Positions 38,440 through 52,458 of a DNA stretch of 64,000 nt are shown piece by piece; within the stretch, counting starts at the first letter, position 1; the number at the start of each line of letters is the position of its first letter. The DNA comes from Cladosporium halotolerans. Its lineage: Eukaryota. The stretch spans positions 806,001 to 870,000 of the forward strand of contig NW_027191457.1 of the NCBI RefSeq assembly GCF_011745625.1, in the 5' to 3' direction. The notes under the pieces were generated by a model. The model was given only the letters and a program-made list of their open reading frames with translations, had not been told where the DNA came from and did no database searches. Made by a program: the position numbers and the translations under genes.

Positions 38440-38791
38440 AACCATATGTCTTGTCTTCAAAGGGCCCAGCCTGTAACGGAGCGAGTGAGTTTCCAAAGGG
38501 CCCAGCCTCTAACAGAGAGAGTGACTTCCATTTTAGGCATTGTGAAATCTGCTCAGCCTTGGAAAANNNNNNNNNNNNNNNNNNNNNNNNNNNNNNNNNN
38601 NNNNNNNNNNNNNNNNNNNNNNNNNNNNNNNNNNNNNNNNNNNNNNNNNNNNNNNNNNNNNNNNAACCATATGTCTTGTCTTCAAAGGGCCCAGCCTGTA
38701 ACGGAGCGAGTGAGTTTCCAAAGGGCCCAGCCTCTAACAGAGAGAGTGACTTCCATTTTAGGCATTGTGAAATCTGCTCAGCCTTGGAAAA
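38440..38791. repeat. Identical 127-bp copies (38440-38566, 38665-38791) either side of a 98-N scaffold gap; each contains two imperfect 36-bp tandem units
   Basis: Direct comparison; units CAAAGGGCCCAGCCTGTAACGGAGCGAGTGAGTTTC and CAAAGGGCCCAGCCTCTAACAGAGAGAGTGACTTCC. Confidence 0.9.
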
Positions 38792-47724: not shown

Positions 47725-48939
47725 CTATTCTTCTTGCGTGTAGTACGCCACACCTTCTTTCCCATACCACTTCTCTCCAACCTCTCGATGGCTCCTAATC
47801 CACTTGCGAAGTTGACTCTCTCCAAGGCTATCCCACCTCGGATCCAAGAAGCTACTGACCGCATCGCCGCCCTCAGCTTGATTCCGTAGGCTTCTCACTT
47901 TCTCAGGGATGTATTGGCGGACCTCACTGACAGTCATATCCAGTGGAAGCCCCATGAAGAACGGGATAGAGTATCGAACATTACTTTTCGGTCCTGGGGC
48001 AATGACACGGTGAATCGTCGCTTTGACCGCTCCTTCCGTTGCTGCTTCAAAAGCGTTGCCGAAGTTGACGACGAAGCTGTTTGGTATGGGCTTTGCGCGG
48101 ATCCACTTGTCCGAGGACGAGAGGACTTCAAGCCCTTCTTCGTTACCGACTTGGTAGAGGAACGTGAGCCAGCCGGAGCTGTCTTTGTGTGCGCCTACGC
48201 CTTGCCCGGCGGTCTGAGAGTCGGCTGGGGATGGAGGATATCTCAGGAGCTTGATTCGATGTTGTGGTGGGAGGTATGTCCGGCAGGGCAATGTGTCGCC
48301 GTTGGTGGTTTTAGTGGTGGTGTGGCTTTGCCTCCCAAAGAAGTGATCGAAGGTGCCGACAGGGATCTCGAACGCTTCTTCGATGAGGTGCACGAAACGG
48401 TAAGACAGTGCTTCGACCTCATCATGGTAGTCTGACAAAGCTTTGCGAAACCCGGGCAGAGTACGCTCATCAGGCCACTGGTTTGGACCTCGCAATCTCC
48501 AGTATAGCTGATTGAAGTTCCTGGTCGAGGAGGAGTCATTTCCATTGACTTGACCGCTACTCTTGCTCTCATTGCTAGAGAATCTTTCATCAACAACATT
48601 TTCGTTCGGTCCTTGCCATACTTCCGGGAGCTCGGTGGCATAGTCAAATTGTTCCCTCAAGTCTTGCTTTCCAAGCGTAGTCTCTTCTGCAAAGCCACTA
48701 TAGCCGAGGAAGTGTGCTGAATTTAGTTTGCTCAGTGATGCTTTCTTCTCGCTGGGTAGAGCAAATAATGAAGGTAGCAAATCGGTGACATTGTCTATTG
48801 TCTTTGGAGGAACACCGTGGTTGACGACATTCAAGAACCCAACGTCGAACAAAGCCGCATGCAGCTGCCTCAAGAGCTGCGGCCTCGTTTTTGGGTCGTT
48901 GGCCCAAGATAGGTCCAAGATAGGTAGTGCCTGAGACAT
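47725..48939 (-). CDS. 2-oxoglutarate/Fe(II) dioxygenase, isopenicillin N synthase-like family
   Basis: LPILDLS, GFLNVVNHGV, PNQWP, HKD...H facial triad and RYS motif. Confidence 0.92.
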   Translation of the reverse strand: MSQALPILDLSWANDPKTRPQLLRQLHAALFDVGFLNVVNHGVPPKTIDNVTDLLPSLFALPSEKKASLSKLNSAHFLGYSGFAEETTLGKQDLREQFDYATELPEVWQGPNENVVDERFSSNESKSSGQVNGNDSSSTRNFNQLYWRLRGPNQWPDERTLPGFRKALSDYHDEVEALSYRFVHLIEEAFEIPVGTFDHFFGRQSHTTTKTTNGDTLPCRTYLPPQHRIKLLRYPPSPADSQTAGQGVGAHKDSSGWLTFLYQVGNEEGLEVLSSSDKWIRAKPIPNSFVVNFGNAFEAATEGAVKATIHRVIAPGPKSNVRYSIPFFMGLPLDMTVSEVRQYIPEKVRSLRNQAEGGDAVSSFLDPRWDSLGESQLRKWIRSHREVGEKWYGKEGVAYYTQEE

Positions 48940-49348
48940 TATGCAGATGTCAAGCAAAGATCACGACGATCTCGCCATGATACATGGTAGAATGATTACC
49001 AAGGCCAGCATTGGATGGCATAAGGGTAGACAGCTTAGGGTTAGTAGGGTTATGCGGGGTGGACCCTGAAGAGCTCGTGCCCCGCAGTACGTCAGGCGGC
49101 AGCAGCAACAGCGCCGCCCGTGACTAGAGCCCTCAGGTCTGCGACCCGCCTACACATGAGCAGCCGACTCACACTCATCCACCTGAGCAAACCGTGAGCG
49201 AGTATCAGTCACTCGAAACTTGCCACCACTCTGACCCTGCCACCGCGACCGCTTCCCGTCCAAGCCTACACTCTCTCCAACGGACAACACTGACCTGTGT
49301 ACCAAAGCAAGCTAGCCCACGGCTCACCGATAGGTAGCATCGCACAGC

Positions 49349-50486
49349 ATGCAAAACCTCATCCACACCTTCATCGACCCGCTGCGCGATCGCTTCGCGC
49401 CCCTCAACCACACCTCCAACTTCCGCCAGACCGGCCAGATCACGCCCGAGGAGTTTCTGCTCGCCGGCGACTTCCTGGTCTACAAGTTCCCCTCCTGGTC
49501 CTGGGCCGACGCCGCCACGCCGGACAAGCGCGTCAGCTATTTCCCGCCTGGCAAGCAGTACCTAGTCACTCGCGGTGTGCCGTGCAAACGTCGCATCAAG
49601 AACGAGGACTTTGCCGGCAGCGCAGATGGCGAGGATCAGGTTGTCCGCGATATGCTCAAGGGTCCCGGCGGTGAGGCCGGCGACGAGGACGATGGCTGGC
49701 TGAAGGCCGGTGGAAGCAATGCAGATGCCGGCAAGGGCTCGGAATACGACATTAGGACTGTTGATGACGCGGGCGAGGTCGGCGACAAGATCGAGGACGA
49801 GGACGACATCCCTGACATGGAGGACGATGAGGATGACGAGGAGGCCATCATCCGCGACACCAAAGGCGGGAAGGGCGAGAACGGGTATGCTTGTCTCTAC
49901 GAACCCCACGAGAGCTCTGCGAAAGTCACTTAACACATCTAACAGACTCCGCACCTACACCCTTTACATCACCTACACGCCCTACTACCGCACGCCCCGT
50001 CTCTATCTCTCCGGCTACGACGGCGTGACCAACCAGCCCCTGCCGCCGATGGCCATGATGGAGGACATCGTCGGCGACTACAAAGACAAGACCGTCACAC
50101 TCGAGGACTTCGGCTTCGCCTCGCCGCCCATCAAGACCGCCTCCGTGCACCCCTGCCGGCACGCCAGCGTGATGAAAGTCCTGCTCGACCGCGCCGACGC
50201 CGCGCTCAAGCTGCGCCTCAGCAAGCTCAGGCACGGCGAGAAGGCCTCGAGCGCGGGCATGGAGGGCCTCGTGGACGCGACGTCTGCGCTCGAGGTCTCC
50301 GCTGCCGCCGGCAAAGCCAAGGAAGGCGGCAGCGGCGACGGCGAGTGGGAGGTTCTCAGCGACAAGGAGGGCCAGCACGAGGAGGAGGACGTCGCGATCC
50401 GCGTCGACCAGTACCTTGTCGTTTTCCTGAAGTTCATGGCGTCTGTCACGCCGGGCATCGAGCACGATTTCACCATGGGCGTGTGA
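49349..50486 (+). CDS. ATG3: Autophagy E2-like Atg8-conjugating enzyme Atg3; intron 49885-49945
   Basis: [43 protein letters not shown], catalytic HPC and [11 protein letters not shown] motifs. Confidence 0.96.
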
Positions 50487-51132
50487 CTGCGCGCGGCCAA
50501 GATCGACTGGTCCGAGTGGGTCAAGCTGTACCCTGGGATTGATTTCCCGCGCGAGGTCGGTTGGATGGAGGTCAAGAAGATGTTTGGCGGGGGGCTAATG
50601 GCTGTTGGGATGGATTAGATGCTGGTCCGTCGCGTCTTTTGGTGTTAATGATGGGATGGACTATAGATTGGCATGGCGTTCTGATGGTTCATCACGACCA
50701 CGATGGGGATCCCGGGCGTTTTTGCGAGCTTTCCTGCGAATGCCTTGGGAGCGAATCAAGGCATGGACACAGCGGGCGTTACAGGAATCGTGTGGCAACA
50801 CTGATGACTTGCTTCTTTCTCTTTGGTAGATACTTCTAGAAATGGCGACATGCAGCATGATAACGGCTTTGCTGGCCGCCATCAGCTGTCTATGAATCCA
50901 TGCAAGCTCGAGAGGTGGCGTCGGAGACGTGCAGTTCATGGTAAAGTCTCATCTCAGTATGCGTCTATACGCCTGGCCGCTGAGGCCCTGCTCATGCTAT
51001 CGTGACATGCCCTCTTCGAAACGCCGGAACGCCATGCTTCCCATCCATCGCTCATGCATCATGCCGCCAGGCCGTGCCGGCAAGGCTCAACAACCTTCGT
51101 CCCGTTCATCATAGTCTCCGCCCAGAGCGCCT

Positions 51133-52458
51133 TCAGGTCGCCTTGACATACGCTGTAAATATAGTTAGCACACACAATCCCCTCAGATCGATCAAAACAC
51201 CGAGACCGAAAACCAGTCAGACTCACAAGCATCGATCTTCCCCACCTGCGGCAGCGCCAACCTCAGCTTGTTCCTATACAGCACGGGCTCGCGCTTCTGC
51301 ACGGGATTGCCTTCGAAATACACCTCCTCGAGCTTCTCCTTGTCGCGCAGCGCGCGCTCGATCTCGCGGAAATCCTCCACCTGGCAGTTGCTCGCCCAGA
51401 CGTTCTCGAGCTTCGCGAGCGCCTCGAGCCCTTCGAGCGACCCGATCGGGTTGGACTGGAAGTCGAGGATCTCGAGCTGCGTGTTCTGCGCGAGGGGCGC
51501 GAGGGACGGGATCTTGTTGTCGGAGACGTAGAGTTCTGTTAGTTGGGGGAGGGTTTCGATGCCGGCGAGGGAGGTGAGGCGGTTCGCTTGGATGCTGAGG
51601 CTGCGGAGGTTGGTGAGGGTGGAGACGTTCTTGAGCTCGGTGATGCGGTTCTGGCCGAGCCAGAGGGAGGTCAGGTTGGTGAGGGTGGAGAGGCCTTCGA
51701 TTTCGCGGATGCGGTTGGCGCCGAGCTCGAGGTAGGTCAGGTTGGTGAGGGCTTCGAGGTTTTCGATGCGCGAGATGCGGTTCTGCACGAAGTAGATGTG
51801 GTCGAGGTTCGTGAGGGTGGAGAGGTTCTTGATGTGCTTGAGCTTGTTGTAGCTTAGGTCGAGGCTGGTGAGGGAGGTGCAGTCGTCGAGGCCTTCGAGG
51901 TGCTTGATGAGGTTGTCATAGAGTTCGAGTTCGGTGAGCTGGGGCGCGAGGCTGGGCGGCAGCTCGATCTTCTGTATGCTGTTCTGACGGAGGCACAGTC
52001 GACGCAGGTTCTTGAAGCGTTCAAGGCGTAGGCTGGGTATGCTCCCAATACGAGAGTGTTGTGCGTCAATCTCCTACTCATGCGACACGATCAGTCTCGA
52101 GCTTCACAAACTTTGGCAACACTGCAATCGTTCTGCTTTCCACGTACCTCCGTATCCGGATCCTCCTCATCAAGCAAATCTGTAACAACCCTCGTCTCAG
52201 CACTTTCGTCCCAAAATATTCCTCGCCAGATACTCCCAACCCACCTTCGTCCGCCGCAATCTCGTCCACAGGCGGCGCATCCTCGTCCTCGTAATCCGAG
52301 TCTTCGAGAGCCTCCGGGTTCGCCAGAACAGCCTGCTTCTCGCTGTTCAAGCGCAGCTTCCCATCCCATCCAGTGCGGTTGCTATGCGGCGTGCTTTTGG
52401 GTGTGGTGTCTTCGGCGGACGGTGGCGCCGCGGCGGCGCCGTCGTTGGGCTCGGTCAT
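51133..52458 (-). CDS. SDS22: Protein phosphatase 1 regulatory subunit Sds22; exons 52458-52245, 52179-52148, 52073-51227, 51152-51133
   Basis: GWDGKLR N-terminus, tandem SDS22-type LRRs and YRNKLRLALPQ..KIDA cap; all introns GT-AG. Confidence 0.93.

Follow-up and report, generated by a model that had tools for sequence, protein, structure and literature searches.

Does the ATG3 gene of Cladosporium halotolerans encode a single protein, or does part of its product continue beyond the stop codon? Atg3 is the E2 enzyme that attaches Atg8 to membranes, and all forms of autophagy rely on it. In the stretch of DNA that was analysed (64,000 nucleotides (nt) of assembly GCF_011745625.1, contig NW_027191457.1, positions 806,001-870,000 of the forward strand; hereafter the window) the gene ends with a TGA at 50484-50486. 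The next codon is CTG, and 43 sense codons (LRAAKIDWSEWVKLYPGIDFPREVGWMEVKKMFGGGLMAVGMD) can be read in the same frame before a TAG is reached at 50616-50618. The initial annotation of this region took the frame for a tail with Atg8-interacting motifs, added to a minor part of the Atg3 protein by stop-codon readthrough or by A-to-I editing of UGA to UGG, and we recovered the frame and its peptide exactly as described there. The evidence presented below indicates, with a probability of around 0.8, that the tail is a real coding extension that is made as a minor Atg3 isoform by programmed stop-codon readthrough.

The host gene and the frame beyond its stop codon

The host gene is ATG3, which encodes an E2-like enzyme. 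The spliced product counts 358 amino acids (aa), and both exons are 100% identical to the database protein P0021, whose model ends at GV and which its source lists under Cladosporium halotolerans as a hypothetical protein. The protein contains the sequence VHPCRHA with the HPC catalytic motif, and the family PF03987 (Autophagy_act_C) matches the ATG3 orthologue P0014 with an E-value of 2.6e-55.

An open frame of this length is not significant by itself. On the basis of base composition the probability of at least 43 open codons is 0.13-0.19, and at least 43 open codons follow 29% of the 107 long stop-to-stop open reading frames (ORFs) in the window. The significance of the tail therefore derives from its periodicity and from its conservation in relatives. 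The GC content at codon positions 1/2/3 is 0.60/0.40/0.79 in the tail and 0.65/0.42/0.86 in the ATG3 coding sequence (CDS), while in the 3' untranslated region (UTR) past the TAG the value for the third position (GC3) is 0.46-0.54 in all three frames, and frame 0 contains 6 stops. The gene-like codon use that had been attributed to the tail holds as a statement on composition, the GC3 of the first 30 codons being 0.87 and that of the CDS 0.86.

Conservation and selection of the tail in related fungi

Relatives of the gene were collected by scanning metagenome contigs with exon 2, which yielded 80 ATG3 loci, 79 of which reach the C-terminus. In a tblastn search with the 43-aa tail, 16 of the 80 loci matched with E-values between 1e-10 and 7e-20, and the remaining hits had an E-value of at least 0.5. 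Together with the window these loci make up a tail-bearing set of 17 sequences, 14 of which are distinct. In 17/17 sequences (14 distinct) the tail lies in the frame of ATG3 and is reached through exactly one stop, TGA or TAG. The tail is located directly behind the stop and in frame in 12 loci. ATG3, TGA and tail stand together on L015 and L016, two contigs that are 1.4-1.5 kb long and lack introns. Introns near the stop were encountered in four other loci: L012 and L013 have a 52-nt GTACGT...CAG intron 2 nt past the TGA, L018 has a 97-nt GTACGT...CAG intron immediately after the TAG, and L009 has an intron ahead of the last Gly codon. In L012, L013 and L018 the ATG3 frame of the tail is regained only by splicing, which rebuilds the sequence stop-CTA, and the stop therefore stays in the mature mRNA with the frame kept through it.

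In frame 0 the 14 distinct tails contain no stop (0/727 codons), whereas their remaining two sense frames have 30/713 and 22/713. The antisense frames hold 11-40 stops; an antisense gene was considered and ruled out, as each antisense frame has stops in 7-13 of the 14 tails. Between the stop and the conserved core lies a linker of 9-34 codons, whose length differences are all multiples of 3. The core itself spans 33 codons, with the consensus EWVxLxPGxDFPRExxWMEVKKxFGGxxMAVGM, and variable sites are distributed over codon positions 1/2/3 as 19/14/30 of 33. The median pairwise ratio of nonsynonymous to synonymous rates (dN/dS; Nei-Gojobori, NG86) of the core was 0.125. Of the 91 pairs, 45 had a finite dS and entered this median, and 46 were saturated. 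A codon model gave an omega of 0.036 and a log likelihood (lnL) of -937.42, compared with -1081.45 when omega was fixed at 1 on the same tree (2*delta lnL around 288); this omega is only approximate, given the great length of the tree (31 substitutions per codon site). Judging from these alignments the core is under strong purifying selection, the value of omega being approximate and its direction clear. The orthologous 3' regions of the tail-bearing loci all preserve the reading frame, the peptide and a C directly after the stop, and dN/dS lies far below 1, in agreement with the coding tail that had been claimed for the window.

The nearest named Atg3 proteins of the 16 tail-bearing loci are those of Cladosporium, Hortaea, Friedmanniomyces (97.9% identity), Extremus (100%), Zasmidium, Pseudocercospora and Zymoseptoria. 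On the basis of these best named hits the carriers of the tail belong to the Capnodiales sensu lato (Dothideomycetes); those among the 80 loci that are nearest to other orders or classes lack it. Public ATG3 models are inconsistent with respect to the tail, and the majority ends at GV. One assembly labelled Meristemomyces frigidus lists the tail as a separate hypothetical protein of 58 aa (P0007), under the locus tag that follows the one of ATG3 (P0044). Word-indexed protein searches with the tail alone found no match among proteins of 122-391 aa or of 217-692 aa, and an exhaustive protein search retrieved 10 short ORFs (45-79 aa, P0003-P0012) and one spurious hit of 2336 aa.

The stop codon and its nucleotide context

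Within the 17 tail-bearing sequences the stop is TGA in 14 and TAG in 3 (L010, L011 and L018), and never TAA. Counted over the 14 distinct sequences, the stop is TGA in 12 cases, TAG in 2 and TAA in none, with C as the following base in 14/14. The tail-less ATG3 loci (53 distinct) use TGA (22), TAG (16) and TAA (15), and C follows in 5, although the sequences are phylogenetically related and these counts are consequently not independent. The conservation extends well beyond the first base. In the 14 distinct sequences C is found at +1 in 14/14, A at +3 in 13/14, C at +4 in 14/14, C at +6 in 13/14 and CG at +8/+9 in 14/14, so that CTA or CCA follows the stop in 13/14 and the consensus reads C-Y-A-C-G-C-T-C-G-G. 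Around 12 nt are conserved in this way, and the third codon positions are near-invariant (A 13/14, C 13/14, G 14/14), whereas the second post-stop base alternates between C and T, which switches the first residue between Leu and Pro. Considering that the third positions are conserved while Leu and Pro toggle, the conservation points to a signal at the level of the nucleotides rather than to a constraint on the peptide. The 13-nt consensus of the stop context was found in 10 of the 80 loci, and there at ATG3 stops only. A shorter motif of the same kind, UGA-CU(A), has been shown by experiment to give readthrough in Ustilago maydis and in human cells (PMC4207609).

An RNA structure that could stimulate readthrough did not emerge from the folding of 12 sequences: their minimum free energy (MFE) z-scores ranged from -1.92 to +1.96, and a common fold was absent. 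In a Cladosporium-like subset the 13 bases from the stop onwards (50484-50496 in the window) are complementary to the codons around E-W-V in the tail (50512-50523). The pairing is in register at 11-12 of 12 positions in the window, in L001-3 and in L007, and the duplexes of L001-3 have energies of -18.7 to -21.2 kcal/mol, which were matched by 1-2 of 200 shuffles (L001 3541-3586; L002 3559-3604). The stem is not general, because pairing is poor (7-8/12) in L012, L014 and L016. A related observation concerns L022, a tail-less locus that is 70% identical and nearest to a Dothideales protein, where TGA-CCG-CGC is found past 3543, with an open frame of 19 codons that starts with PR. Its context may be a remnant or a precursor of the proposed readthrough context.

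The tail in the ATG3 transcript

Assembled Logan contigs of four runs were compared with positions 49300-51200, a type of data in which expression levels and rare forms are invisible. Library X4, a metatranscriptome, yielded a contig of 1368 nt from which the ATG3 intron has been removed and which matches the window without a break or a difference between 49945 and 50841. The contigs of X16 and X17, which derive from relatives that are 95-99% alike, are spliced as well and reach 50867 and 50878, respectively. The 3' end of the ATG3 mRNA thus lies at least 223 nt past 50618 in all three libraries, so that an end of the transcript before the second stop, which would have left the tail out, is not what is observed: the spliced transcript holds the stop and the entire tail. 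Within the tail the X16 and X17 contigs differ from the window at 50573 (synonymous), 50575 (K30M) and 50595 (synonymous). Record 11 of X17 stems from a more distant relative; it aligns over 50388-50487, up to the C after the TGA, and continues as CACGCTCGG... (CACGCTCGGGCGGCGGC...). The consensus stop context is therefore present in a transcript of another species from the same sample.

Proposed readthrough and the alternative routes to the tail

In the mechanism that we favour, some ribosomes would decode the UGA of ATG3 by a near-cognate tRNA rather than terminate, a few relatives having UAG instead. This event would be promoted by the post-stop C together with the context of around 12 nt (stop-CYA-CGC-UCG-G), and the product, which may be called Atg3x, would consist of the regular protein up to ...HDFTMGV, one inserted residue, the variable linker and the 33-residue module.

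Stop-loss A-to-I editing of the mRNA, which occurs in sexual stages of Sordariomycetes and by which UGA or UAG would be turned into UGG so that the tail would come only from edited transcripts, is the other route that the initial annotation had named, and we regard it as unlikely. It would account for the fact that the stop is always TGA or TAG and never TAA, TGA and TAG both lying one A-to-I change away from UGG, and stop-loss C-terminal extensions have indeed been documented in Fusarium graminearum and Neurospora (PMC11156358; PMC13123824). More than 70% of the fungal editing sites have a U at position -1, however, and A or G is favoured at +1 (PMC11156358). The TAG loci L010, L011 and L018 do have the preferred U, whereas 12 of the 14 distinct sequences read TGA-C, where the neighbours of the edited A would be G (-1) and C (+1), so that only the 2 distinct TAG sequences fit. 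The stop-loss cases documented in PMC13123824 use UAG. Furthermore, the tail-bearing clade belongs to the Dothideomycetes, while the editing documented in the cited parts of PMC11156358 and PMC13123824 lies in other classes, and ATG3 has 0 occurrences in the main text of the latter. The contigs of X4, X16 and X17 show no A>G at 50486, which is a weak argument, since contigs drop rare variants and the stage sampled is undefined. Finally, a C kept directly behind the stop and a conserved 12-nt context would be expected under readthrough. An alternative splice that takes out the stop and joins the tail to ATG3 seems less probable again. The public model P0022 (444 aa) does precisely this in silico, with ...HDFTM followed by linker and tail, and in L018 a second GT is located 6 nt upstream of the GTACGT donor, the use of which would skip Val-TAG in frame. 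On the other hand, the known 61-nt intron is the sole joint reported at ATG3 in the X4, X16 and X17 contigs, the linker of 27 nt in the window leaves no room for an intron beyond the conserved C-terminus, and the real intron of L012 and L013 follows TGA-CT, where splicing from the upstream GT (GTCTGA) would miss the frame. Removal of the stop by splicing, moreover, would make it needless to conserve the stop, the C behind it and the frame through it, as 17/17 sequences do.

The frame is equally telling with respect to the possibility that the tail forms an independent small protein, made by reinitiation, from a non-AUG start or from a transcript of its own, and not an extension of Atg3. ORF callers report stand-alone ORFs of 45-79 aa (P0003-P0012) and one public genome annotates P0007 as a hypothetical protein beside ATG3, yet a separate ORF would not need the frame of ATG3, which is always kept, even in the three intron-bearing arrangements. 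Since 8 of the 14 distinct tails, including that of the window, lack an in-frame ATG before the conserved core and since conservation begins at the first post-stop base, we consider such an ORF very improbable. A non-coding role of the region, for instance as a regulatory element of the 3' UTR that is not translated, would agree with the nucleotide-level conservation of the first 12 post-stop nt and with the complementarity of those bases to the E-W-V codons in the Cladosporium-like subset. It is the least probable of the explanations considered, as it is at odds with the codon-periodic variation (19/14/30), the omega of 0.036, the 0 stops in 727 codons, the indels that are all in frame and the folding z-scores of 12 sequences, which scatter about zero (-1.92 to +1.96). 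Insertion of selenocysteine was ruled out by inference, TAG being found in place of TGA at three loci.

Programmed readthrough thus remains the preferred reading, and several points weigh against it. Translation of the tail is inferred rather than observed, as are the ribosomal readthrough, the minor level of the isoform and the role of the module. Two limits concern numbers given above, namely the relatedness of the sequences in the stop-context counts and the length of the tree behind omega. The window itself has TGA-CTG-CGC-GCG, which diverges slightly from the consensus in having CTG instead of CTA or CCA, and readthrough in the window could therefore be weaker. The Cladosporium-like loci L005 and L006, which are 83% identical in exon 2, show no trace of a tail in the regions checked (L005 1476-1800; L006 1658-1990) and have TGA-A and TGA-G, respectively; some lineages can therefore do without the module, which in these two loci looks to have been lost along with the leaky context. 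In a second assembly of Meristemomyces frigidus the tail is fused after ...HDFTM (P0022) by a predicted intron that skips GV and the stop. Rare variants are dropped from Logan contigs, which would hide low-level editing or a splice form of minor abundance. Taken together, of the minor extended isoform that had been claimed, the conserved and selected in-frame extension behind a stop in a leaky context stands, as supported by frame, omega and mRNA, and the editing route is unlikely.

The C-terminal module

An alignment of 21 tails contains 12 invariant positions (W11, L14, G17, D19, P21, E23, W26, E28, G34, G35, G41 and M42), and R22, M38 and A39 are nearly invariant. In 16 of the 21 tails the module ends one residue past G-M, at the extreme C-terminus; the other 5, including L009, L010 and L014, have extra residues. 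Three cores of the Atg8-family interacting motif (AIM; [W/F/Y]-x-x-[L/I/V]) had been claimed for the tail of the window, WVKL, YPGI and WMEV, all of which are present. Two of these are conserved in the relatives, as W11xxL14 and W26xE28[V/I]29, and Y15xxI18 is not, position 15 being occupied by Y, H, F, R or Q. The residue before W11 is E, D or Q in most tails and that before W26 is D, E or G, with E23 invariant. The handle region of yeast Atg3 carries an AIM, WEDL, and the corresponding region in the body of the window Atg3 contains a WEVL. The tail resembles the handle motif in its two invariant W-x-x-[L/V/I] cores, which are often preceded by acidic residues, and differs from it in that these cores, whose role as AIM is putative, form part of a conserved stretch of 33 residues in which G, D, P, E and GG positions are invariant as well, which exceeds the needs of a linear motif. 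The breadth of the conservation of the core suggests more than a linear motif.

The module did not resemble anything in the collections searched. Pfam returned 0 families for the window tail and a best E-value of 0.16 among the 21 tails, a profile search of the PDB with the tail had a best E-value of 0.73, and a search of the ESM Atlas with the tail gave no usable match. A short Atg8 motif had no match in the window or in the 80 loci. AlphaFold2 models were made of the tail alone (mean predicted local distance difference test (pLDDT) 63.9, predicted template modelling score (pTM) 0.26) and of a full-length orthologue with tail (mean pLDDT 65, falling below 50 for the tail at residues 347-379; no confident docking). 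Both contain a weak C-terminal beta-hairpin (W26-M32 and G36-M42) at low confidence, in which W26-M32 forms a hairpin strand at a pLDDT of around 60-70, the W11 region having values from below 50 to 66, and a functional conclusion was drawn from neither. Our suggestion for the function is a tentative one: the module could provide candidate Atg8-family binding via the two invariant W-x-x-[L/V/I] cores, or could regulate the E2.

Features of the locus and neighbouring genes

The positions of the features are collected in Table 1. The convergent neighbour of ATG3 (50941-51226 and 51192-52073, minus strand) encodes a leucine-rich-repeat (LRR) protein (Pfam LRR_4, E 1.3e-49). The X16 and X17 contigs end at 51152 and resume with sequence from 51227 on, which implies a minus-strand intron of around 74 nt at 51153-51226 in the LRR gene. 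The two mRNAs converge to within around 60-100 nt of each other at their 3' ends (ATG3 at 50841-50878, LRR gene at 50941). Upstream, at 47725-48936 on the minus strand, lies a gene for a 2-oxoglutarate (2OG)-Fe(II) oxygenase (DIOX_N, E 2.3e-27; 2OG-FeII_Oxy, E 7e-18). A run of 98 N at 38567-38664 is an assembly gap or a masked stretch.

Table 1. Features of the ATG3 locus and of the proposed extension (positions in the window)
Feature	Position	Strand	Remarks
ATG3 exon 1	49349..49884	+	Start ATG at 49349
ATG3 intron, 61 nt, GTATGC...CAG	49885..49945	+	Joint 49883/49945 ('skips 61, GT..AG') in the X4, X16 and X17 RNA contigs
ATG3 exon 2, coding part	49946..50483	+	HPC catalytic motif and WEVL handle motif; C-terminus ...HDFTMGV
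Proposed leaky stop TGA	50484..50486	+	Stop is TGA or TAG, never TAA, in 17/17 tail-bearing sequences
Post-stop context CTG CGC GCG G	50487..50498	+	Consensus of relatives CYA CGC TCG G
Variable linker of the proposed extension	50487..50513	+	9 codons in the window; 9-34 among relatives
Conserved core module, 33 codons, EWVKLYPGIDFPREVGWMEVKKMFGGGLMAVGM	50514..50612	+	Gap-free alignment of 21 sequences; omega 0.036
AIM-like core 1, W11-V-K-L14	50517..50528	+	W11 and L14 invariant in 21/21; AIM role putative
AIM-like core 2, W26-M-E-V29	50562..50573	+	W26 and E28 invariant; position 29 is V or I
Second stop TAG, terminating	50616..50618	+	Codon periodicity ends here; 6 frame-0 stops downstream
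Rest of the 3' UTR	50619..50878	+	RNA contig ends at 50841 (X4), 50867 (X16) and 50878 (X17)

Comparison with known systems and implications

A close parallel is provided by the peroxisomal isoforms that arise by readthrough of UGA-CU(A), as in Pgk1, Rpe1 and Art1 of Ustilago maydis and in human MDH1x and LDHBx (PMC4207609; PMC4359377; PMC5133446). Shared features are the leaky UGA followed by C-U or C-A, the conserved in-frame extension behind a conserved stop, the occurrence in fungi and, as we infer for Atg3, the minor level of the extended form of a housekeeping enzyme. Unlike these proteins, the Atg3 tail lacks a type 1 peroxisomal targeting signal (PTS1): it ends in GMD, GMT, GMN, GMP, GMG or in longer acidic ends, none of which fits the PTS1 expression given in PMC4207609. 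In place of a targeting tripeptide it carries, on an autophagy E2, a 33-residue module that belongs to no known family, and its nucleotide context (CYA-CGC-UCG-G) is longer. Another parallel is the A-to-I stop-loss editing of FgDBF2 and around 400 other genes in Fusarium graminearum (PMC13123824), where likewise a stop is made sense at the level of RNA or decoding and a C-terminal extension results in a filamentous ascomycete. In FgDBF2, however, the stop is a UAG in a hairpin, editing is restricted to the sexual stage and the tails are disordered and destabilising (PMC13123824), whereas UGA-C predominates as the Atg3 stop, the tail has a well conserved core with a weakly predicted beta hairpin, and the fungi concerned are Dothideomycetes. 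A description of an Atg3 readthrough isoform was not found in the literature searched, outside of which fall the supplements of PMC13123824 (Dataset S1) and PMC4207609 (Tables S1/S2).

Functional stop-codon readthrough itself is already known, and what is new here is a conserved peptide module on a core autophagy enzyme. If our reading is correct, this would be a fungal case of functional readthrough that is unrelated to peroxisomal targeting, and the unusually long conserved nucleotide context would offer a testable readthrough signal. Current gene models omit the tail, name it as a separate gene or splice around the stop, and annotation pipelines could be corrected on this point. A further idea, more doubtful than the binding or regulatory function suggested for the module, is that of a clade-wide translational switch on the autophagy of the Capnodiales, in which the beta-hairpin module, with its two AIM-type cores, its aromatic-Gly-Gly and its fixed C-terminal position, might bind Atg8 or fold onto the active site of the E2, and in which the rate of readthrough, perhaps responsive to stress or oxygen, might set Atg8 lipidation. 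The invariant aromatic-Gly-Gly may resemble the C-terminal tail of Atg8. The fungal order includes important crop pathogens (relatives of Zymoseptoria, Cercospora and Pseudocercospora), indoor moulds (Cladosporium) and extremotolerant black yeasts. For these fungi a second, selected Atg3 isoform that is made by recoding would represent an unrecognised layer of autophagy control.

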